Shown here: in pieces, positions 2,398 to 13,047 of the stretch
Numbering within the stretch: position 1 is the first letter of the stretch
How the letters are laid out: every line of letters starts with the position of its first letter
Assembly: GCA_963779415.1 (NCBI GenBank)
Contig: CAVZYA010000002.1
Location: 704,001-768,000, forward strand
Direction of reading: 5' to 3'
Source: an uncultured Acidobacteriota bacterium
Lineage (GTDB): Bacteria; Acidobacteriota; Thermoanaerobaculia; UBA5066
Length of the DNA stretch: 64,000 nucleotides
Notes under the pieces: model-generated
What the model was told of the DNA's origin: nothing
Database searches by the model: none
What the model saw: the letters and a program-made list of their open reading frames with translations, nothing else
Program-made: the position numbers and the translations under genes

Positions 2398-3090
2398 GGG
2401 AGTCGTGGGGCCGGACTCGCTCGAACGCCGTCTTCCCGATGAGGTCGCGGGACTCTGCCTCGGCGTTCGAGCGATCGCCGGACGCCGTCTTCGTGACGGA
2501 CCGGCGCAACCGGGTCGTCTTCTCGAACCGCGCGGCCGAGACTCTGCTCGGATTCTCCGACCGGCGAGACCGTCGGCCTTTCGTGCGAAGCGGTCCTCAA
2601 GGGGCGCGACGTCTTCGACAACCGCTATTGCGCGCTGAATTGCCCGGTGATGCAGATGGCGTCCCGCGGCGAGAGCGTGCGGGACTTCCGTCTCACGATT
2701 CAGGCCCGGGACGGCCGCGAGGTGACCGTGGAGCTGAGCGTCCTCCAGCTCGTCGTCGCGCCGCCGGATCATTACTACCTCGCCCACGTCCTCAAGCTCG
2801 TCGAGAGGACCGGTCGCGTGCCGGCCCCTCCCGACGTCGAGACGCAGCCTCCCCGGTCATCCCTCGAGATCGTCCGGGAGTCCACGGACGTGCGGGTCCG
2901 ACGGCTGACGACGCGGGAGGTCGAAGTCCTCGGAATGCTGGCGGCGGGCCGGACGACGCCGGAGATCTCGGCCCGGCTCTGCATCTCGGCTCTGACGGTA
3001 CGGAACCACATCCAGAACATCCTCGAGAAGCTCGAGGTTCACTCCAAGAGCGAGGCCATCGCCTTCGCGTTCCAGAAGAGGCTGATTTAG
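2394..3090 (+). CDS. PAS domain + LuxR HTH transcriptional regulator, frameshifted near 2560
   Basis: PAS start (FERSPDAVFVTDRRNRVVFSNRAAETLLGF) in one frame, continuing in the +1 frame (CEAVLKGRDVFDNRYCALNCP...LTTREVEVL..ISALTVRNHIQNILEKL). Start is GTG 2394 overlapping the mqnC stop, or ATG 2439. Confidence 0.8.
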
Positions 3091-3259: not shown

Positions 3260-4612
3260 ATGAAGAGGCTCCTTTCGTTTTTCTCCGTCGCCTTCGGGCT
3301 CTTTGCCCTCTCGGTCCTGCGGGAGACGCCCGCCGCCGCGGTCCCCAGCTTCGCGCGTCAGACCGGACTCGCGTGCAACGGGTGCCACACGACCCCCCCG
3401 GAGCTCAATGCGGCCGGACGCCGGTTCAAGCTGACGGGGTACACGGACCGGGCGGACGACACCGCGACGGTCAACAACGAGCCGGGGAAGAAGCACGCGG
3501 GCCTCGATCTCCTGAAATCGCTTCCGGTGTCGGCCATGCTCGACGCGTCGTTCACGGCGGTGAAGACCCCGGAGCCGGACAGCAAGAGCACCACCTTCCA
3601 GTTTCCGCAGGACGTCTCGCTCTTCCTCGCCGGAGGGTGGTCCTCGCACGTCGGCAGCTTCATCCAGATCACCTACAGCACGCAGGACGATCATTTCGGC
3701 ATCGACAACACGGACATCCGGTACGCGGACAAGACGACGCTCGGCGGCAAGGAGCTCGTCTGGGGCCTGACGCTCAACAACAACCCGACCGTCGAAGACC
3801 TCTGGAACACGACCCCGGCCTGGGGATTCCCGTGGATCGGAAGCGACTGGGCGCCCGCGCCGGCCGCCGCCCCGCTGCTCGCGGGCGCCCTCGGGCAGGA
3901 TGTCGCCGGGCTCGGCGCGTACGCGATGTGGAACGAGCACCTCTACGTGGCCACGGCGTTCTATGCCACGAATCACGTAGGGGACTCGCAGCCGAATACG
4001 GGGACCAATTACTCGATGAACATCAGCGGCGTTGCGCCGTACTGGAGGGTCGCCTGGCAGCAGTCGCTCGACGCGGACAGCACCCTCGAGGTCGGCACCT
4101 ATGGAATCCGGGTGAACTCGACTCCGAACGGGATCAGCGGTCTCAGGAACGGTTACACGGACTGGGGCTTCGACCTCCAGTACGACCGGACGGTCTTCGT
4201 CCGAGACGTCGTCTCGGTCCGCGTCACCTACATCCGTGAGACGTCCACGCTGGACGCGACGTACGACCAGGGCGGTGCGACCCAGGCCGCGAACAACCTC
4301 GGGATGTTCCGCGCCAATGTCGGGTACCACTTCGGCAACGTCTTCTCCCTGACGGCGGGCCTGCAGGATGTGATCGGCACCGGCGACTCCCTTATCTGGA
4401 CGCCGGCGCCCGTGACCGGCAGCGCGACCGGCAGCCCGAACAGCATGTCGTATCTCCTGAGCCTCTCGTGGTGGCCGGTCCAGAACGTCCAGATTGCTGG
4501 CCAGTACACGGCGTATACGAACTTCAACGGCGGGAACTCGAACTACGACGGATCCGGCCGAAATGCGAGCGACAACAACACGATCTATCTGCTCGCGCGG
4601 TTCATCTTCTGA
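3260..4612 (+). CDS. cyc2: Cyc2-type fused monoheme cytochrome c / outer-membrane beta-barrel
   Basis: SD AAGGAG and signal peptide, then VPSFARQTGLACNGCHTTPPELNAAGRRFKLTGY (Cyc2 N-terminal signature). Followed by about 390 aa of amphipathic beta-strands ending in Phe. Confidence 0.85.
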   Translation: MKRLLSFFSVAFGLFALSVLRETPAAAVPSFARQTGLACNGCHTTPPELNAAGRRFKLTGYTDRADDTATVNNEPGKKHAGLDLLKSLPVSAMLDASFTAVKTPEPDSKSTTFQFPQDVSLFLAGGWSSHVGSFIQITYSTQDDHFGIDNTDIRYADKTTLGGKELVWGLTLNNNPTVEDLWNTTPAWGFPWIGSDWAPAPAAAPLLAGALGQDVAGLGAYAMWNEHLYVATAFYATNHVGDSQPNTGTNYSMNISGVAPYWRVAWQQSLDADSTLEVGTYGIRVNSTPNGISGLRNGYTDWGFDLQYDRTVFVRDVVSVRVTYIRETSTLDATYDQGGATQAANNLGMFRANVGYHFGNVFSLTAGLQDVIGTGDSLIWTPAPVTGSATGSPNSMSYLLSLSWWPVQNVQIAGQYTAYTNFNGGNSNYDGSGRNASDNNTIYLLARFIF

Positions 4613-4654
4613 AACCCGTGGTCCTCAGGACCGCGTTCCGAAGGAGGGAAGACC

Positions 4655-5233
4655 ATGAAGGGAATGCTCGTCCTCGTCTTTTCCGCGGCCGTGGCCCTGC
4701 CGCTCGCGGCCGGGGAGATCCATGGCAAGGTCGTCTGCAAGGGAGTACGCAACAGCAGCGACGCGGTCGTCTACGTGGAGGGCGTTCCGGGAAAGAGCTT
4801 CCCGCCGCCCACGGAGCACGCGAAAGTCAACCAGTTGAACCTCACGTTCGTTCCCCACGTCCTTCCGGTCCTCATCGGGACGACGGTTGACTTCTACAAC
4901 TCCGACGCCGTCCTCCACAACGTCTTCTCGCCCGACGCCTGTGCCGAGAAGTTCAACCTGGGGACATGGCCGAAGGGACAGTTCCGGAGCTACACCTTCA
5001 AGAAGGATTGCGTGGCGACTCTCCTCTGCAAGGTACATCCGGAGATGGAGGCGTTCGTCGTGGCCGTCCCGACCCCTTACTTCGCCGTGACGAAGCCCGA
5101 CGGCTCGTACAAGATCACGGAGGTTCCCGACGGCTCCTACACGCTGAAGGTCTGGCACCCGAAGCTGAAAGGAACCCAGAAGACGGTGCAGGTCGCCGGG
5201 GCGGCGGCAGCGGATTTCGAGATCTCGAAGTAG
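4655..5233 (+). CDS. Periplasmic cupredoxin-domain (type-1 copper) protein with flanking beta-sandwich
   Basis: Signal peptide; FVPHVLPV..GTTVDFYNSD..HNVFS and CKVHPEM give a His/Cys/His/Met ligand set. Confidence 0.75.
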   Translation: MKGMLVLVFSAAVALPLAAGEIHGKVVCKGVRNSSDAVVYVEGVPGKSFPPPTEHAKVNQLNLTFVPHVLPVLIGTTVDFYNSDAVLHNVFSPDACAEKFNLGTWPKGQFRSYTFKKDCVATLLCKVHPEMEAFVVAVPTPYFAVTKPDGSYKITEVPDGSYTLKVWHPKLKGTQKTVQVAGAAAADFEISK

Positions 5234-5243
5234 GCCGGACGGC

Positions 5244-7073
5244 GTGGCCGACTTCAGCCGCGACTGGCTCGAGCGGAACTTCCCCTGCAAGGAAGCGTGC
5301 CCGGTCCACACTGAGGCCGGCAAGTACGTCACGCTCATCGCCGAGGGGCGGTACCGCGAGGCCTACGCCGTGGCCCGCAAGCCGAATCCGCTCGCGTCCA
5401 TCTGCGGGCGGATCTGCGCGGCCCCGTGCGAAAGCGTCTGCCGCCGGGGGGAGCTGGACGCCCCGATCTCGATCCGGGCCCTGAAGCGGTTCGTCACGGA
5501 GCGGTTCGGCGTGGAGAGCATGATCGACCTCTCCGTCCTGGCCGAGATCTACGGCCAACGCACCGGTCGGTATCCCGAGCGCGTGGCGGTGATCGGCTCG
5601 GGTCCGGCCGGCCTGGCGTGCGCCCACGACCTCGCCCTGATGGGCTATCCGGTCACGATCTTCGAAGCCGCGCCGGTTGCCGGCGGGATGCTGCGGCTCG
5701 GCGTGCCGGAATACCGGCTGCCCCGGGCTCTCATCCAGCTCGAGATCAACGCGATCCTCTCGCTCGGAGTGGAGCTGGTGACGAACACGCGCCTCGGGCG
5801 CGACGTCACTCTCGCCGACCTGAGGCGCCAGGGATTCGCGGCGATCTTCCTCGGCATCGGCGCGACGCGGAGCCGGGATCTCGCCGTTCCGGGCATGGAG
5901 CTCGACGGCGTCCTCCGCGGGATCGACTACCTCCTCAACGTGAACCTCGGCTACAAGGTCGAGATGGGGCAGAGCGTCGTCGTGATCGGCGGCGGAAACG
6001 TGGCCTTGGACGTGGCGCGCACGGCCGCGCGCGGCGGCGAGCAGGAAAACCTCCAGCGAAATCTCTCCATCGTCGCGGCGCTCGACGTGGCACGCAGCGC
6101 CGTCCGCTTCGGGGCGCGTCAGGTGACCGTCTGCTGCCTGGAGTCCGAGGCCGAGATGCCGGCGTCCCCCGAGGAGGTCGAGGAAGCGCTCCGCGAGGGG
6201 ATCCGGTTCCGCCACCGAGTCGGCCCGAACCGGATCGTGGGCGAGAACGGGACCGCGACGGGCGTCGAGCTCCGGGCCGTCTCTCGAGTCTTCGACGAGG
6301 GCGGGCGCTTCGCGCCGGAGTTCGTTCCCGGCTCGGAGACGCTCCTTGCGGCGGACACTCTCATCGTCTCGATCGGACAGACCGCCGATCTCTCCTTCCT
6401 CCGGCCGGAGGACGGCATCGAGTCGGCGCGGGGGAGGATCACCATCGACCCCGAGACGCTCGCGACGTCCGCCCCGGGCGTCTACTCCGGCGGCGACGCG
6501 GCCTTCGGGCCGCGGATCGCCATCAACGCCATCGCCGACGGCAAGCGGGCGGCGCGCTCGATCGACACGCATCTCCGCGGCCGGCCCCGGCCGGAGGCCG
6601 AAACCGAGGTCGAGATCGAGATCCACGACCGCTACGAGCGCCCGTGGGACTACGAGGGAATCCCGCGGCAGAAGCCGCCGAGCCGTCCGATCTCGCGGCG
6701 GATCGGGATCGCCGAGGTGGAGGAGTGCTTCGGCGAGCGCGAGGCCCGCCTCGAAGGAAGTCGCTGCCTCCACTGCTGGACGAACACGATCTTCGAAGAG
6801 AGCGCGGCGGAGGGGACGGAGTGCCTCCTCTGCGGCGGCTGCCAGGACATCTGCCCGGAGGACTGCATCGAGATCCTTCCCTCGGCCGGGGTCGAGGAGC
6901 TTCCGCCGGGCGCCCGGGAGCTGGCCCCGCTCCTCGTCGAAGGCCGGCTCGAGGGTTCCATCCTGATCAAGGACGAGGAGACCTGCATCCGGTGCGGACT
7001 CTGCGCCGCTCGCTGTCCGGCGGGCACGATCACGATGCAGAGCTTCGAAACGAGGGAGGCTGCCCGTGCCTGA
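5244..7073 (+). CDS. GltD/NfnB-like FAD/NAD(P)-dependent oxidoreductase with N-terminal Fe-S and C-terminal 2x[4Fe-4S] domain
   Basis: CKEACP, CGRICAAPCESVCRR, GSGPAG, GGGNVALDVAR, CLLCGGCQDICP, CIRCGLCAARCP; no signal peptide. Confidence 0.88.
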   Translation: MADFSRDWLERNFPCKEACPVHTEAGKYVTLIAEGRYREAYAVARKPNPLASICGRICAAPCESVCRRGELDAPISIRALKRFVTERFGVESMIDLSVLAEIYGQRTGRYPERVAVIGSGPAGLACAHDLALMGYPVTIFEAAPVAGGMLRLGVPEYRLPRALIQLEINAILSLGVELVTNTRLGRDVTLADLRRQGFAAIFLGIGATRSRDLAVPGMELDGVLRGIDYLLNVNLGYKVEMGQSVVVIGGGNVALDVARTAARGGEQENLQRNLSIVAALDVARSAVRFGARQVTVCCLESEAEMPASPEEVEEALREGIRFRHRVGPNRIVGENGTATGVELRAVSRVFDEGGRFAPEFVPGSETLLAADTLIVSIGQTADLSFLRPEDGIESARGRITIDPETLATSAPGVYSGGDAAFGPRIAINAIADGKRAARSIDTHLRGRPRPEAETEVEIEIHDRYERPWDYEGIPRQKPPSRPISRRIGIAEVEECFGEREARLEGSRCLHCWTNTIFEESAAEGTECLLCGGCQDICPEDCIEILPSAGVEELPPGARELAPLLVEGRLEGSILIKDEETCIRCGLCAARCPAGTITMQSFETREAARA

Positions 7074-7566
7074 ACCGCCCGTGGATCCCCGGACGAACTC
7101 CCTGCCGGAGGCCGGTGAGCCGAACCGGCGCGACGTCCTGACGCGGATCGGGGTCGGCGCCTGCGCGGTGGCCGCCGTCGGCTCGGGCGCCGTCACCCTA
7201 GACTTCCTGAAGCCGAAGGTTCTCTTCGAGCCCGCGACGACCTTCCGCGCCGGGAGTCCGCTCGACTACCCCGAGGGGACGGTCCGTTTCGACCGGGAGA
7301 GAAAAGCCTACGTCATCGGCGGGGACGGTGGGGTCTACGCGATGTCGGCCGTCTGCACCCACCTCGGATGCATCACCCGGTACGTCTCGGATGAGAGCGC
7401 CATCGCCTGCCCCTGTCATGGGAGCCGGTTCGACCTCGAGGGAAACGTCACCCACGGACCGGCCCCACGCCCCCTGCCATGGCTCGAGGTGAGGCTCGAC
7501 GACAAGGGAAACCTCGTCGTGGATACCAGCGTGGTCATTCCGCGCGGAAAGGTGCTGAAAGCATGA
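7066..7566 (+). CDS. Rieske [2Fe-2S] subunit of Rieske/cytochrome b complex
   Basis: Tat-like NRRDVL plus TM helix; CTHLGC and CPCHGSRF boxes; GPAPRPL. Confidence 0.93.
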
Positions 7567-8336
7567 GCGCCCGCTTCGAGACCGCTCTCTTCGACCGCCT
7601 TCGCGCCACGTCCGTCTGGCGTTCCATCGTCCGCCACGGCGTCGACGGGACGAACCGGAACAGCTCGCTCGTCATCTTCGAGAACCTCTTCCTGCACGTC
7701 CACCCGGTGAAGGTGCGGGAGAAGACCCTCCGGTTCACCCACACGTTCTGGCTCGGAGGGGTGACGCTCGTCGCGGCGGTCGTCCTGATCGCCACGGGAA
7801 TCCTCCTGATGTTCTACTACCACCCCTCCGTCCCGCAGGCCTACCGCGACATGAAGGAGTTGGCGTTCGTCGTCGACAACGGCCTCTTCCTCAGGAATCT
7901 TCACCGGTGGGCCGCCCACCTGATGGTCTTCTCGGCGTTGCTTCACATGCTGCGCGTCTTCTACCACCGCGCCTACCGGCCCCCGCGTCAGTTCAACTGG
8001 GTCGTCGGCGTCGTCCTCCTCATCCTGACGCTCCTCCTCTCGTACACGGGCTATCTCCTACCGTGGGACCAGCTCGCGTTCTGGGGCGTCTCCGTCGGGA
8101 CGAACATGGCCCGGACGGCGCCGATCGTCGGCGAGAAGCTCCGATTCCTCCTCCTCGGGGGGAACGTCGTCTCCGCGAACGCCCTCCTCCGCTTCTACGT
8201 CCTCCATTGCGTCGTCCTCCCGGTCGCCCTCGTCCTTTTCATCGCCGTGCACGTCTGGCGGATCCGCAAGGATGGCGGCGTGCAGGGTCCCCTCGAGGAG
8301 ACCGGGGACTCCGCGGAGCCGGAGGTCCGCCCATGA
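7563..8336 (+). CDS. Cytochrome b, N-terminal (b6-like) subunit
   Basis: [38 protein letters not shown]...[14 protein letters not shown] overlaps the Rieske stop. Confidence 0.92.
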
Positions 8337-9043
8337 CGACCGGAATCCCCCTCAAGGTCACGGAATCGAACGACCCCGTCGCCGTGCCTCGCCGTGTCGC
8401 CCTCGTCCGGCCGGACATCCGGCCGGCGGTCCGCCGCCGCGAGGAAAAGTGGGTGATGACGTTTCCGCACCTGATCGTCCGGGAGGTCATCCTCTTCCAG
8501 GTCGTCGTGATCGCCCTTTCGCTCGTGGCGCTCTTCGTCGACGCGCCTCTCGAGGGGATCGCGAATCCCGTCGAGACTCCCAATCCGGCCAAGGCGCCCT
8601 GGTATTTCCTCGGCCTCCAGGAGCTGCTTCACTACTTCCCGCCCGTCGTCGCGGGAGTTCTCCTGCCGGGCCTCGTCGTCCTCGCACTCGTCGTCATTCC
8701 GTACGCGCGGATCAACCTCGCCGCCGGGCCGCTCTGGGCCCGGCCCACCCCGAGGCAGACGCCGGCCGTCGCGGCCGCCGTCGTCGCGGTCGTCCTCCTC
8801 TTCGCGGCCTTCCGGTGCTGGCCGATCGTGATTCCGACGATCGCGATCGGAGGCGCCATGTTCGCCGCACGGGGCGGCGGGAACGCCGGAGCCTTCCGGC
8901 GGCTCCTGGCACGGGTCACGCTCCCCGAGTGGATCATGACCTGGTTCGTCGTCATCGCTGCCCTCCTCACGATCATCGGAACCTTCTTCCGCGGACCGGG
9001 CTGGTCCTTCGTCCTGCCCTGGTCTCCGGGAGCGACCTTCTGA
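8333..9043 (+). CDS. Cytochrome b subunit IV (PetD-like)
   Basis: [32 protein letters not shown] (PEWY-equivalent), several TM helices. ATGA overlap with cytochrome b. Confidence 0.88.
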
Positions 9044-9048
9044 AGAGA

Positions 9049-11079
9049 ATGGCCGTGCCGATCAAGCGCCTCTTTGCAGTCTCGAGCCTCCTCTTCCTCT
9101 TCGTCCTCGCGGTCTCGCCTGCCAAGAACGCCCTTCGCCCGTACCGGTCCTTCCAGCGGCGGTTCGCCCGGCTGGGGGCCGAACGCGCGAAGAGCCAGAA
9201 GGCGGCAGGCGACTACGAGAGCCGGCCGATTGCCATCCACCAGATCTGGCTGCGGAACTTTGACGATCGCGTCGACCGCTGTACGACGTGCCACCTCGGC
9301 GTGGCCGATCCGCTCATGGGGGACGCGCCGGAGCCGTTCCGGACTCACCCGAGGACCGAGCACACGCCGGACGGATTCGAGCAGATCGGGTGTACCTCGT
9401 GCCATGGCGGCCAGGGCCTCGCCACCTCGGAGTCGGAAGCCCACGGAACGGCGAAGGACGCGGGGCCGCCGATGACGCCGGCGGCTTACCTCGAGGGGGG
9501 GTGCGGGCGCTGCCACGGCGGGGAGATCGTGCCCGAAGCGCCGCGCCTCTCCCGCGGACGCGCCCTCATGACGCGCTTCAGTTGCTATGCGTGCCACGTC
9601 GTCCGGGGTCAGGAGACGTTTCGGTCGGAGGCACCTCCCATCGAGACCGTCTCCCTGAAGACAGGGGGCGAATGGGTCCGGCGATGGCTGAAGAACCCGC
9701 GCTCGGTCGACCCGAACGCGACGATGCCCAACTTCCAGCTCTCGGATACGGAGATCGACGAGCTGGCGAACGCCCTCTTCGCGCGGGCCGTCCCGGACGA
9801 GCTCGCGCGCGCGATTCGCGGGGCGTCGGACGAGCCGCCCGGAAACGCCGCCAGCGGCAAGAAGATTTTCTCGGAGTCCCGCTGCATCAGCTGCCACACC
9901 GTCGAGGGAAAAGGGAACGGCTCGGCGCCGGAGCTCTCGAAGGTCGCCTCTTCCGCCACGCGCGGCTGGCTTCTCGCGTTCCTTCGATCTCCCCACTCCT
10001 TCAACCCGAAGACGCGGATGCCCGAGTACGGCTTCTCGGAGACGGAGTCGCGCGACGTCGTGGCCTATCTCGAGGAGGAGTTTCGCGACTTCGACGCGCC
10101 GAAGGAGATCCTCGACCCGATCCGGCCCAACCAGACGGTCGCCGAGCGGGGCGAGAAGCTCTTCCGGCGGTTTGGCTGTTTCGCCTGCCACGGGCCGCTC
10201 CCGGCCTCCGAAACGGAGAGGTTCGGTCCGACGCTCGACGGCATCGGGGACAAGAAGCCCGCCTCCCTCGACTTCGGAAAGCGGAACGACCTGCCGCCCA
10301 CGCTGCCGGCCTGGCTCGCCGCCAAACTGGAGGCCCCGCGCTCCTTCGCGCAGGGGCTCCGGATGCCGTCGTTCGGCTTCTCGCCGGAGGAGACAAAAGC
10401 GATCGTGACGGCGCTCCTCGCCATGGGAGCTGACCCCGTCCCGGAAACCTACCGGTACACGCCGATACGGCCGCCCGCCGTCCTCCCGGGCGGAGAGACG
10501 GGCAAGCTCATCGACCGGTACCGGTGTCTCTCCTGCCACGAGATCGGCGACCGCGGGGGCGACATCTCGACGGCCCCGCTCACGCACGAAGGAAGCAAGG
10601 TCCGGCGCGACTGGCTCGTCGGGTACCTTCTCGTCTCCACGTCGATCCGACCGGTCCTGGAGGAACGGATGCCGATCTTCCGGATGTCCCCCGGCGACGC
10701 AACCCGGTTGACCGACGCCATCGAGAGCTTCTGGGTCGACGCGGCGATCCCGGAGGACCCGTTCGCCGGAAAGCCTGCCGCGGACGCCGATCCGCGCGAA
10801 GGCGAGCGTCTCTACACGGAGCTGGGGTGCCGTGGCTGCCACCTGATCGGCAACGCCGGAGGGGGCTACTACGGGCCTCCGCTGACCGACACGGCGACGC
10901 GCCTGAAGCCGGGCTGGGTCTTCTATTGGCTGAAGGGGCCGCAGCGCTGGCGCGCCGACGTCCGCTGTCCGGACTACGGCCTGCGCGACACCGATGCCCT
11001 GCGCCTGACGGCCTATCTCGAGACGCTCAAGGCCCCCCCCGAGACGAACACAGCCAGAACGGCGGGAGGTGCAAAGTGA
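9049..11079 (+). CDS. Membrane-anchored octaheme cytochrome c
   Basis: N-terminal hydrophobic helix; eight CxxCH motifs (CTTCH, CTSCH, CGRCH, CYACH, CISCH, CFACH, CLSCH, CRGCH). Confidence 0.9.
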   Translation: MAVPIKRLFAVSSLLFLFVLAVSPAKNALRPYRSFQRRFARLGAERAKSQKAAGDYESRPIAIHQIWLRNFDDRVDRCTTCHLGVADPLMGDAPEPFRTHPRTEHTPDGFEQIGCTSCHGGQGLATSESEAHGTAKDAGPPMTPAAYLEGGCGRCHGGEIVPEAPRLSRGRALMTRFSCYACHVVRGQETFRSEAPPIETVSLKTGGEWVRRWLKNPRSVDPNATMPNFQLSDTEIDELANALFARAVPDELARAIRGASDEPPGNAASGKKIFSESRCISCHTVEGKGNGSAPELSKVASSATRGWLLAFLRSPHSFNPKTRMPEYGFSETESRDVVAYLEEEFRDFDAPKEILDPIRPNQTVAERGEKLFRRFGCFACHGPLPASETERFGPTLDGIGDKKPASLDFGKRNDLPPTLPAWLAAKLEAPRSFAQGLRMPSFGFSPEETKAIVTALLAMGADPVPETYRYTPIRPPAVLPGGETGKLIDRYRCLSCHEIGDRGGDISTAPLTHEGSKVRRDWLVGYLLVSTSIRPVLEERMPIFRMSPGDATRLTDAIESFWVDAAIPEDPFAGKPAADADPREGERLYTELGCRGCHLIGNAGGGYYGPPLTDTATRLKPGWVFYWLKGPQRWRADVRCPDYGLRDTDALRLTAYLETLKAPPETNTARTAGGAK

Positions 11080-11483
11080 CGGCGCAGGCCGCCCGGCGGC
11101 TCACCGCCGTTTTCGTACTCTTCGCGGCCGCCGGCTGTTCCAGGAAGCCGGGCGCGGTCCCGCAGGCGGCCGCCCCAGCCGAGCCTTCGTACGAGATGCG
11201 GCTGGGCCGGGGAATCTACCGCCACTATTGCCAGACCTGCCACGGGGAGACGGGAGCCGGCGACGGCTTCAATGCCTTCAATCTCGATCCCCGCCCGCGC
11301 GATCTCTCAGACCCCGTCTTTCAGAAAAAGAAGAGCGACGCCGAGCTCGCGGACGCCATCCGGCGCGGGGGATCGGGAGTCGGGCTGTCGCCTCTCATGC
11401 CGCCGTGGGGCCGGACGCTCTCGGCACAGCAGATCGACCAGGCCGTCCTCTACATCCGGTCGCTGAAGAAGACTTCACCCTGA
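11076..11483 (+). CDS. Monoheme cytochrome c lipoprotein
   Basis: Lipobox-like FAAAGC; CQTCHGETGAGDG; distal Met in LMPPWG. GTGA overlap. Confidence 0.85.
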   Translation: MTAQAARRLTAVFVLFAAAGCSRKPGAVPQAAAPAEPSYEMRLGRGIYRHYCQTCHGETGAGDGFNAFNLDPRPRDLSDPVFQKKKSDAELADAIRRGGSGVGLSPLMPPWGRTLSAQQIDQAVLYIRSLKKTSP

Positions 11484-11490
11484 AGCCTCG

Positions 11491-13047
11491 CTACTTGTTG
11501 AGGAGTTTCTCAGAAATCGACTTGGCCTGGAGGAAGAGGCCGAGGTAGTCGCGCCCGCCGGCTTTGCTGTCGGTTCCGGACATGTTGAAGCCGCCGAAGG
11601 GGTGGACGCCGACGAGCGCCCCGGTGCACTTCCGGTTGATGTAGAGATTTCCGCAGAAGAGACGGCGCTTCGCCTCCGCGATCCGGTACCGGTCGCGCCC
11701 GAAGTAAGACCCCGTCAGGCCGTATTCGCTCTCGTTCGCGAGCCGGATCGCGTGGTCGAAATCGCGCGCCTCGGTGATCGCAAGGACAGGCCCGAAGATC
11801 TCCTCCCGGAAGATCCGGTGCGTGGCCTTGACGTCGTAGAAGACGGTCGGCGCGACGAAGTGGCCGGTCTTCCCGCTCCAGGTCCCTCCAGCACCCAATT
11901 TGGCTTCGCGCCGGCCGATCCGGATGTAATCCGAGACCGTCTTGAGCTGCCGCGCGGAGGCGACGGGACCGACGTTCGTCTTCGGGTCGCGCGAGGGGCC
12001 GAGAACGAGCTTCTTCGTCCGGGCGACGACCGCATCGACGAAGCGCCGGTAGAGCCGCCGGTGGACGATGGCGCGCGAGCAGGCCGAGCATTTCTGCCCC
12101 TGGAAGCCGAATGCCGACGCCACGACCTGCGCCACGGCGAAATCGAAATCGGCGTCCTCGTCGACGACGATGAAGTCCTTTCCCCCCATCTCCAGGATCG
12201 TCCGCTTGATGAAGATCTGGCCCGGCGCTTGCTGGGCGGCCTTCTGGCTGATCCGGAGGCCCACTTCCTTCGAGCCCGTGAAGGCGATGAAGCGGGTGAG
12301 AGGATGCTCGACGATGACGTCGCCGATCTCGGCTCCCGAACCGGGGAGGTAGTTGAGGACCCCCGCGGGAGCGCCCGCCTCCTCGAGGAGCGTGAAGACC
12401 TTCCACGCGACGAGCGGCGTGTCCGAGGCGGGCTTGAGGACGACGGAGTTTCCCGACACGACCGCGGCGGTCGTCATCCCCGTCAGGATCGCGATGGGGA
12501 AGTTCCACGGCGGGATGACGGCGCCCGTCCCGAGCGGGACGTAGAGGGTCTCCGGGTACTCGCCCCGGTAGGGCGTGACAGGGATCTCGCCGCCCCAGCG
12601 GAGGATCTCCCGCGCGTAGAACTCGAGGAAGTCGATCGCCTCGGCCGTCTCGACGTCGGCCTCCGGCCACGTCTTGCCGATCTCGAGAACCATCGTCGCG
12701 GAGAACTCGTGCTTGCGCTCGCGCATTCTCGCGGCGGCGCGCAGGAGGACGCTCGCCCGTTCGCGCGGCGGGAGGGCGGCCCATGCCGCCTGGGCGCGGA
12801 CGCCCGCCTCGATCGCCCGGACGGCCGTGGTGCGGTCGGCGAGGTGGTGGCGGGAAAGGACCTGCGCGTGGTCGGACGGGTTCGTGTTGTCGAGGAGCGA
12901 CCGGCCGCGCACGCGGCGTCCCGCGACGACGACGGGAATCTCGGCTCCCGCCGCCCGCTCGACACGGGCGAGGGCGGCCTCGAAAAAGGAACGGTTTTCG
13001 GCGCTGCTGAAATCGGTAAAGGGCTCGTTGCGAAAGTCTTCAAGCAT
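11491..13047 (-). CDS. pruA: 1-pyrroline-5-carboxylate dehydrogenase
   Basis: FRNEPFTDF, EAIDFLEFY, PWNFP, FTGS, EMGGKD, FQGQKCSAC, EEIFGP, PFGGFNMSGTDSKAGG. Confidence 0.92.
   Translation of the reverse strand: MLEDFRNEPFTDFSSAENRSFFEAALARVERAAGAEIPVVVAGRRVRGRSLLDNTNPSDHAQVLSRHHLADRTTAVRAIEAGVRAQAAWAALPPRERASVLLRAAARMRERKHEFSATMVLEIGKTWPEADVETAEAIDFLEFYAREILRWGGEIPVTPYRGEYPETLYVPLGTGAVIPPWNFPIAILTGMTTAAVVSGNSVVLKPASDTPLVAWKVFTLLEEAGAPAGVLNYLPGSGAEIGDVIVEHPLTRFIAFTGSKEVGLRISQKAAQQAPGQIFIKRTILEMGGKDFIVVDEDADFDFAVAQVVASAFGFQGQKCSACSRAIVHRRLYRRFVDAVVARTKKLVLGPSRDPKTNVGPVASARQLKTVSDYIRIGRREAKLGAGGTWSGKTGHFVAPTVFYDVKATHRIFREEIFGPVLAITEARDFDHAIRLANESEYGLTGSYFGRDRYRIAEAKRRLFCGNLYINRKCTGALVGVHPFGGFNMSGTDSKAGGRDYLGLFLQAKSISEKLLNK

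Follow-up and report, generated by a model that had tools for sequence, protein, structure and literature searches.

Why would a bacterium place the gene of an outer-membrane cytochrome-porin in one operon with the genes of a quinol-oxidising complex and a soluble NAD(P) flavoprotein? The question is raised by a 64,000-nucleotide stretch of the genome of an uncultured Acidobacteriota bacterium (contig CAVZYA010000002.1, positions 704,001–768,000, hereafter the window), in which an operon at 3260–11483 combines a Cyc2 cytochrome-porin with a Rieske/cytochrome b complex and a flavoprotein of the NAD(P) oxidoreductase type. The porin gene recurs with the genes of the complex across related genomes, and the evidence for a functional link between the two is good. 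The operon is a possible way to trade electrons between iron outside the cell, the quinone pool and NADH, which is testable but unproven. The locus bears on three open questions, namely the role of Cyc2 outside the known iron oxidisers, the capacity of a Rieske/cytochrome b complex to make NAD(P)H by quinol bifurcation, and the route by which Acidobacteria reduce Fe(III). Production of NAD(P)H by quinol bifurcation has been proposed, and is unproven, for slow-growing anammox bacteria (PMC12954380), and a study of peat Acidobacteria, whose genomes include one with the operon, reported the known metal-reduction genes to be absent (PMC6018796); here and below, statements about cited papers apply to those parts of the papers on which we draw. 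Many Acidobacteria from soil and peat have the operon, and the full-length octahaem protein is found in 32 of 401 sampled Acidobacteriota genomes, so an effect of the module on the cycling of iron and carbon in these habitats is possible.

Gene content of the operon

Comparison of the open reading frames (ORFs) with the window sequence gives eight ORFs, all on the plus strand, with intergenic spacings of 42, 10, −8, −4, −4, 5 and −4 nt along the operon, as in the earlier note on this DNA, which had described eight co-directional genes with gaps of at most 42 nt. They encode, in order, a fused monohaem cytochrome-porin of the Cyc2 family, here called type A (3260–4612, 450 residues), a type-1 copper cupredoxin with a β-sandwich domain and an N-terminal hydrophobic segment (4655–5233, 192 residues), an NfnA/GltD-like NAD(P) oxidoreductase with FAD and four Fe–S clusters (5244–7073, 609 residues), a Rieske [2Fe-2S] protein of the Ser-x-Phe type (7066–7566), a cytochrome b6-like subunit (7563–8336), a subunit IV with the Qo motif APWY (8333–9043), a membrane-anchored octahaem cytochrome c (9049–11079) and a monohaem class I cytochrome c with His/Met ligation, probably a lipoprotein (11076–11483). 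There is one CxxCH motif in Cyc2, eight in the octahaem protein and one in the monohaem protein. Pfam and NCBIfam searches returned the flavoprotein (PF07992, PF14691, PF12838), the Rieske protein (PF00355), the N- and C-terminal parts of cytochrome b (PF00033 in the b6-like subunit, whose best PDB matches are cytochromes b6, and PF00032 in subunit IV) and the c cytochromes (PF13442/PF00034 for the monohaem protein). Together with motifs, a structure model and atlas clusters, these matches uphold the gene identities that had been claimed. The eight genes are predicted to form one co-transcribed unit. A promoter scan found no sigma-70-like site, and terminator-like sites numbered 2 against 4.8 expected, which is uninformative. 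In tblastn searches of the host genome all operon genes were single-copy, save those of the flavoprotein, the Rieske protein and cytochrome b.

Cyc2 identity of the first gene

The Cyc2 family is defined by the motif AXPXFAR[Q/K][T/Y] before a single CXXCH, with PXL four residues after it (10.1101/228056). The product of the first gene has no Pfam or NCBIfam match at E 0.001, and its N-terminal part contains AxPxFARQT, the only CxxCH of the protein at position 39, and then PEL. Three residues separate the end of the motif from the first Cys (five when counted from the Arg), a spacing shared by two named plasmid homologues, and the motif occurs once in the host genome. Features of a possible N-terminal signal peptide are visible by eye, namely basic residues at the start, a hydrophobic stretch and AAA before the motif; the hydropathy scan gave no flag there. 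The AlphaFold model, built with a 120-row alignment, is a 16-strand barrel (pLDDT 79, pTM 0.80) in which the first 20 residues and the haem segment have pLDDT values below 50. Its Foldseek matches are outer-membrane porins, including OprP and OprO (2o4v, 4rjx), and the length of 450 residues lies above the family minimum of 365. By motif and fold, the first gene is a cyc2, as had been proposed, while its haem binding and iron chemistry are predicted. The same motif, single CxxCH, PxL, 16-strand barrel and length above 365 residues are found in Cyc2 of A. ferrooxidans, Mariprofundus Cyc2PV-1 and Leptospirillum Cyt572 (10.1101/228056, PMC7029218, PMC13741234).

Full-length relatives of the window protein in Acidobacteriota have 53–66% identity. 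More distant full-length homologues (31–37% identity) lie on 15 plasmid records, with hosts that include Ralstonia, Caballeronia, Paraburkholderia, Ideonella, Methylocystis, Acidiphilium and others. Because Li et al. place these taxa beside A. ferrooxidans Cyc2 (PMC10654088), type A likely belongs to cluster 2 of the family. A second type, type B, has the motif PxFARKY, which resembles the N-terminus of Cyt572 and suggests that it belongs to cluster 3. Neither type is close to any tested Cyc2 enzyme. Presence of cyc2 is taken as a sign of Fe(II) oxidation, and the authors of the family definition call clusters 2 and 3 uncertain (10.1101/228056).

Conservation of the link between Cyc2 and the complex

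The sample anchored on Cyc2 comprised the best 80 of 169 genome loci. All seven partner genes were present in 50 of these 80, so the operon is not a chance arrangement; a partial block was found in 8 (six cut by contig ends, one without the flavoprotein only and one at the edge of the flank), the cupredoxin alone in 16 and no partner in 6. The octahaem cytochrome was used as a second anchor. It has matches at E 1e-40 in 46 of 401 sampled Acidobacteriota genomes, and is full-length at E <1e-100 in 32 of them, which represent 14 families. Outside the window's own genome, Cyc2 was present in 29 of 32 octahaem-anchored loci, and contig ends truncate the remaining three, of which one has an intact upstream side without cyc2. 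The earlier note had proposed to look for synteny of cyc2 with the flavoprotein, Rieske and cytochrome b genes in relatives, and both anchors recover it. Among the weaker octahaem matches, none of five examined (of 16) had Cyc2. In metagenome loci anchored on cytochrome b, Cyc2 was found in 13 of 13 with two long flanks, in 10 of 22 with one long flank and in 1 of 45 with short flanks. The octahaem protein has no match in plasmids, and its relatives, of which 20 of 150 representatives were looked up, are named Nitrospinota and Myxococcota. The idea that most octahaem operons lack Cyc2, based on matches of the window Cyc2 in 12 of the 401 genomes, was rejected when a motif and profile search found distant Cyc2 proteins in the slot.

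These distant proteins are of type B, which occupies the slot in 24 of the 29 octahaem-anchored loci, the other 5 having type A as in the window. The two types share about 29% identity over about 120 residues in BLAST, and a profile comparison aligns 352 columns at 20% identity with a probability of 97.8%; a crude strand count for type B (6.9 versus 5.2 in shuffled sequences) is weak. Within a pool of 88 loci, enriched for type A by its construction, type A stands first in 44 and last in 14, type B stands first in 24, and the slot is empty in 6. On a quick tree of cytochrome b and the octahaem protein (47 rows with labels assigned by motif: 24 type B, 21 of the type A rows and two outgroup rows), the types interleave, and well-supported branches force at least five changes. 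A single origin of type A operons is rejected with a p-AU of 3e-9, in a test that was picked after the first tree had been viewed. The slot would thus have been refilled at least five times by distant types, and moved, without loss of the porin, which argues for selection on the link; no other observation speaks as strongly for a joint function of porin and complex.

Other loci combine the same parts in different ways. In L043 (9995–16477), as in L141, L148 and L149, Cyc2, the cupredoxin and the bc genes are kept and the flavoprotein is absent; L043 has also lost the His45 motif of cytochrome b described below. In L002 (10001–19452), type A cyc2 and the cupredoxin gene are followed by genes of a dihaem protein, an MtrC-like decahaem protein, a second decahaem protein, a 657-residue unknown protein and a NapC-like tetrahaem protein, so that multihaem genes stand in place of the Rieske block. 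L155 (5390–13313) contains a type A cyc2–cupredoxin pair beside COX1, COX2 and cytochrome c genes, back to back with a type B pair. In L156 (9050–13708), as in L116, L157 and L072, a type A-like cyc2 lies directly 5′ of a Rieske gene; the cytochrome b of this group is different, fused and accompanied by four class I haems, which makes it a second, independent pairing of Cyc2 with a bc complex. Two of the metagenome loci, L180 and L230, have no Cyc2 and look like related clusters with other partners. In L230 (832–12807), the flavoprotein, Rieske, b and IV genes come with that of a nine-haem cytochrome and are followed by those of a molybdopterin oxidoreductase and ferredoxin-type proteins, so that the inner module is the same and its output another.

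Flavoprotein and Rieske/cytochrome b complex

The flavoprotein has no signal or membrane segment, and its best PDB matches are 9bov/9bp5 and NfnA (9n5u), with E 1e-97. The cluster Cys residues are kept in 74–76 of 76 aligned sequences. In nearly all of the 76, Leu-Glu stands where NADPH enzymes have Arg-Arg, which suggests that the enzyme uses NAD(H) over NADP. We take Leu-Glu in this pocket to be of the NAD(H) type, and the GGGNVA loop, which the protein also carries, to be that of an NADP-type family. The motif [LM]KR[FY] is present in 76 of 76 sequences; its Lys also occurs in NfnA and, judged by position, may correspond to the Lys near a three-Cys cluster in the Kuenenia enzymes. Residues about 254–292 contain a duplicated helix after the NAD-binding loop, with two A-L-D-V-A-R-like copies, and this duplication is seen in 16 of the 76 sequences, including the window copy. 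In metagenome loci with more than 1.2 kb of upstream sequence, the flavoprotein gene is directly upstream in 50 of 51.

Both boxes of the Rieske protein are conserved in 89 aligned sequences, with Ser in all listed variants and Phe in most. The predicted potential of Ser-x-Phe Rieske proteins is 200–260 mV (PMC3509893, PMC4122944), and measured values for anammox Rieske proteins are +303 and +335 mV, the latter for a Ser/non-Tyr protein (PMC12954380). The four His ligands of the b haems (HHHH) are present in 92 of 94 cytochromes b and the APWY motif in 82 of 86 subunits IV; subunit IV has four hydrophobic segments, one of them long enough for two helices, compared with the five helices of the anammox-type subunit. 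With its Rieske boxes, four haem b His and APWY on subunit IV, the complex has the features of the APWY clade, in which no member had been characterised by the time of Kao and Hunte (PMC4122944). The Cys of haem ci (CxGG) is replaced in the window, where the sequence is FWLGG, and is found in only 3 of 94 cytochromes b, all from distant loci without Cyc2; its absence fits a loss of quinone reduction on the N-side. An extra N-side His, His45, is invariant in 58 of 58 flavoprotein-bearing operons and perhaps ligates an additional haem; its likeness to a Kuenenia residue is suggested by position. A complex prediction with a cytochrome b dimer, the ferredoxin domain of the flavoprotein and four haems was uninformative (score, 0.00; mark, 0.32).

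Periplasmic carriers

The cupredoxin itself has no PF00127 match, its Pfam and NCBIfam matches being β-sandwich families only, but PF00127 is found in 53–87% of the members of its nearest atlas clusters, and there are weak PDB matches to blue copper proteins (best E 0.002). The type-1 copper ligand set (His...Cys-x2-His-x2-Met) is present as His88, Cys125, His128 and Met131, which are kept in 107 of 107 aligned sequences. The octahaem protein consists of an N-terminal domain with three haems followed by five class I domains, and the ligands of four of the latter (Met226, Met324, Met439 and Met541) are kept in 79 of 79 sequences. At haem 8, Met is replaced by Cys in the window lineage or by Glu in a Terriglobia-like lineage, and this haem is atypical and possibly low-potential or catalytic. 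In the monohaem protein, Met108 is kept in 85 of 87 sequences, and a lipobox-like AAGC was spotted by eye. With a Ser-type Rieske protein, His/Met haems and His-Cys-His-Met copper, the entire periplasmic arm would be high-potential.

Comparison with known systems

The complexes of Kuenenia stuttgartiensis encoded by Kustd1480–1485 and Kuste4569–4574 (PMC12954380) share with the window operon a split b6 and subunit IV, a Ser-type Rieske protein, a hexa- or octahaem cytochrome c that replaces cytochrome f, a cytoplasmic NfnA-like FAD/Fe–S NAD(P) oxidoreductase encoded in the cluster, a basic C-terminal patch on cytochrome b and, judged by position, perhaps an extra N-side His. In layout, the likeness to the NAD(P)-linked clusters of anammox bacteria, which had been claimed, therefore holds. 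In contrast to these complexes, with which it was compared through their published description, the window operon has no haem ci/cN Cys and no HAO-like octahaem protein; it adds Cyc2, the cupredoxin and the monohaem protein, and its hosts are heterotrophic Acidobacteriota, not anammox bacteria.

The rus and pet operons of Acidithiobacillus (PMC10654088, PMC8790237) have Cyc2, a blue copper carrier, c cytochromes and a bc complex in common with the window, and their pathway has been proposed to run both ways (PMC8790237). However, cyc2 is clustered there with genes of an aa3 oxidase, the bc1 genes form a separate operon, and the bc1 complex is of the proteobacterial type (PPWY), without an NAD flavoprotein, so the match is one of logic and not of gene layout (PMC8790237, PMC5566968, PMC13741234). 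The extHIJKLMNOPQS cluster of Geobacter (PMC5877670) likewise unites an outer-membrane porin, multihaem cytochromes, a Rieske protein and a split cytochrome b, but its porin ExtI is haem-free, a rhodanese and a selenoprotein are encoded with it, and a cupredoxin and an NAD flavoprotein are missing. Membership of the window operon in the Ext group was rejected: scores on the ExtP, ExtQ, ExtS and ExtM models were 266 (window cytochrome b), 52, 81 and 19 bits, below 290, 150, 100 and 800 bits, respectively, the window porin carries the haem motif, and there is no rhodanese gene. The APWY clade of cytochromes b (PMC4122944) shares the APWY Qo motif, the split cytochrome b and a medium-to-high-potential Rieske protein, and one of its Geobacter members has been suggested to work in reverse; most of its CxGG members have WCMGG, with a Cys that is gone from the Cyc2-linked family.

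The literature searched, which was mostly open-access, did not yield any account of a cyc2 gene that shares an operon with those of an NAD(P)-linked Rieske/cytochrome b complex; neither did the parts examined of PMC7029218, PMC13647500 and PMC10564751, the last including a search of its supplement. Both modules are known separately, and their combination is apparently new and undescribed as a unit, as the earlier note had supposed.

Host genome and transcription in a relative

The host genome (4.36 Mb, 92% complete) can be attributed to the Acidobacteriota, as had been suggested, in agreement with the nearest named relatives by window Cyc2, which are Acidobacteriota and include Thermoanaerobaculia. 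It encodes ACIII with a haem-copper oxidase, a second COX1-family protein, a bd oxidase, a NiFe hydrogenase, complex I, menaquinone genes, dsrAB and two further Rieske/cytochrome b clusters. There are 24 ORFs with at least three CxxCH motifs, one of them an OmcA/MtrC-family decahaem protein; RuBisCO and MtrB gave no match in this genome at its 92% completeness. This gene content suggests a facultatively anaerobic heterotroph. Two further regions were noted (G000:C1:698000–712600 and G000:C2:1601800–1607800), with dsrAB beside a DsrMKJOP-like run and with a cluster containing a 22-CxxCH ORF that has no NCBIfam match. Sulfate reduction was considered as the purpose of the operon and rejected: dsrA is present in 8 of 32 operon genomes versus 29 of 369 others, and because this excess is modest and among related genomes, the tie is not obligatory.

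One locus of our sample (L078) belongs to the peat metagenome-assembled genome SbA1, and the lengths of its cytochrome b and octahaem proteins and the contig number match SBA1_90050 and SBA1_90052. Hausmann et al. list SBA1_90049–52 as an ordinary complex III (PMC6018796, Table S3a). Transcripts of these genes were present in 62–79% of anoxic peat incubations, with best ranks of 137–411, and in native soil they were absent or had ranks of 1348–1977 (PMC6018796). This shows transcription without O2, not induction.

Direction of electron transfer

The locus had been read as one continuous path that leads from the metal by way of quinone to NAD(H). When a Rieske/cytochrome b complex oxidises a quinol, the two electrons leave by separate arms, that of the Rieske protein and c haems and that of the b haems (PMC12954380). 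Cyc2 and the flavoprotein with NAD are expected at the ends of opposite arms, so that NADH making would go with electron export, and electron uptake with NADH spending. The single path is therefore not upheld. Uphill transfer from Fe(II) to NAD+ in line would need a working N-side quinol site, against which the missing haem ci argues.

The operon may instead encode a Y-shaped electron junction, whose protein contacts, potentials and electron direction we infer. A menaquinol-oxidising complex of the Rieske protein, b6 and subunit IV would split the two quinol electrons at the APWY Qo site. The low-potential electron would pass through the b haems, and perhaps also a haem bound by His45, to the Fe–S chain of the flavoprotein, FAD and NAD+, and the high-potential electron would travel from the Rieske protein through the octahaem protein, the monohaem protein and the cupredoxin to Cyc2. 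When O2 is scarce, Cyc2 would pass this electron to an extracellular acceptor with a potential of at least about +300 mV, candidates being Mn oxides and Fe(III) in chelated or acid-soluble form; with O2 present, the same carriers could feed an oxidase encoded elsewhere. In reverse, NADH and an outside electron would together reduce quinone. The reaction is probably near equilibrium and reversible. Simple arithmetic with −70 mV for menaquinone and −320 mV for NAD places its switch point at +180 mV, and chelated or acid Fe(III) and Mn oxides lie above this value.

Of the two directions, we tentatively hold export to high-potential acceptors as a slight favourite. In favour of this reading we count the conserved linkage, the high-potential look of the periplasmic carriers, the missing haem ci Cys, the gene content of the host (no RuBisCO match, but menaquinone genes, complex I, dsrAB and a bd oxidase) and the presence of bc-gene transcripts of SbA1 in anoxic peat. 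Quinol bifurcation has been argued for the anammox complexes, where quinol-driven reduction of NAD(P)+ is unproven too (PMC12954380), and a route from bc1 through rusticyanin and Cyc2 to Fe(III) has been proposed for Acidithiobacillus (PMC8790237). The fuller claim, in which quinol bifurcation is tied to extracellular transfer, with Cyc2 either reducing Fe(III)/Mn(IV) as the terminal enzyme or serving as a reversible redox valve in a widespread undescribed module, is possible but doubtful. If bifurcation and a Cyc2 reductase were both true, this operon would supply the route of metal reduction that has been missing for the Acidobacteriota of soil and peat, and a large share of clusters 2 and 3 of Cyc2 would not mark iron oxidisers.

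Several points weigh against export. The biochemically tested Cyc2 proteins in the literature examined are all Fe(II) oxidases. A forward acceptor must lie above +180 mV, or at +280 to +330 mV against a membrane potential of 100–150 mV, and ferrihydrite at pH 7, at about 0 ± 100 mV (10.1101/228056), is too low. The need of a heterotroph for NADH from quinol is not obvious, and Cyc2 is perhaps not required for export because the genome has the separate OmcA/MtrC-family decahaem protein. In SbA1, the bc genes have no significant differential expression, a 'highest' rank is set against the native rank, a second complex III ranks as high (128–194), and the curated table omits cyc2, the cupredoxin and the flavoprotein (PMC6018796). 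Type A Cyc2 also occurs without the Rieske block in 22 of the 80 Cyc2-anchored loci, 11 of which have at least 9.5 kb on both sides. Among the 88 loci, five that bear Cyc2 score as flavoprotein-less (four truly, one cut) and three of the five keep an equivalent of His45, so the flavoprotein is dispensable and His45 does not strictly track it.

The opposite direction is a distinct possibility. Cyc2 would oxidise Fe(II) or reduced humics and load the cupredoxin/cytochrome c pool, from which electrons would go mostly to a caa3 oxidase or NO reductase encoded elsewhere; some would enter quinone by a reversed Qo reaction, with the second electron supplied from NADH through the flavoprotein (confurcation), and the whole would be a mixotrophic supplement for heterotrophs at oxic–anoxic interfaces. 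This agrees with the Fe(II) oxidation known for Cyc2 proteins and with Acidithiobacillus, whose layout is also Cyc2, a blue copper protein and a bc complex. At neutral pH, any donor below about +200 to +300 mV makes the reverse reaction downhill, the host has ACIII with its haem-copper oxidase and the second COX1-family protein, and the cyc2–cupredoxin pair of L155 adjoins COX1/COX2 genes. However, confurcation would consume NADH otherwise available to complex I for pumping, the neighbours listed for the 88 loci (judged by sequence, with Pfam on a subset) include no recurrent oxidase family, the host has no RuBisCO match, and the bc-gene transcripts of the relative are present in anoxic incubations.

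It is unlikely that the flavoprotein acts as a donor, passing NADH electrons to an N-side quinone site as ferredoxin/FNR does on cytochrome b6f. By this route, which goes round complex I, the complex would act as an NADH:cytochrome c oxidoreductase with Cyc2 as the exit for its electrons; no other arrangement places NADH and an outside acceptor in series. It would suit a heterotroph that needs to dispose of NADH, it agrees with the NAD-type Leu-Glu pocket, and the option has been raised for the anammox enzymes (PMC12954380), but the operon family is without the haem ci Cys, and such a route is wasteful where NADH dehydrogenases exist (PMC12954380), as in this host with its complex I subunits. 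Least probable of all is that Cyc2 and the cupredoxin form a mobile module (a sensor, pore or stand-alone redox valve) that shares only low-oxygen regulation with an independent NAD-linked bc complex, since, although cyc2–cupredoxin pairs occur alone or beside other modules (the MtrC/MtrA-like cytochromes of L002, the oxidase of L155) and flavoprotein–Rieske–b clusters occur without Cyc2 (L159, L180, L230), every assessable locus of the octahaem clade (29 of 29) has the slot occupied, a distant Cyc2 has taken it over on five or more occasions, and mere co-regulation would tolerate loss more often.

Neighbouring genes and a probable regulator

As had been noted, there is no terminal oxidase gene inside the operon; the next gene, on the minus strand, encodes a pyrroline-5-carboxylate dehydrogenase (11491–13047) and closes the unit downstream by its convergent orientation. 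Directly upstream, on the plus strand, lie mqnA and mqnC of the futalosine menaquinone pathway (331–2397), which are not among the recurrent operon neighbours in other loci. Between these genes and cyc2, a frameshifted PAS-LuxR gene (2439–3090, plus strand) was recognised by tblastn with an intact 224-residue relative, which matched in two frames, and the frameshift is located between 2558 and 2566. It is likely an assembly error, because genes of the bd oxidase and the hydrogenase are split in this genome too. The intact relative has PAS and GerE domains, and the family adjoins the operon in 20 of 88 loci; its product probably regulates the operon. Three Cys are conserved in the PAS domain of the relatives, and the protein is possibly a redox or metal sensor.

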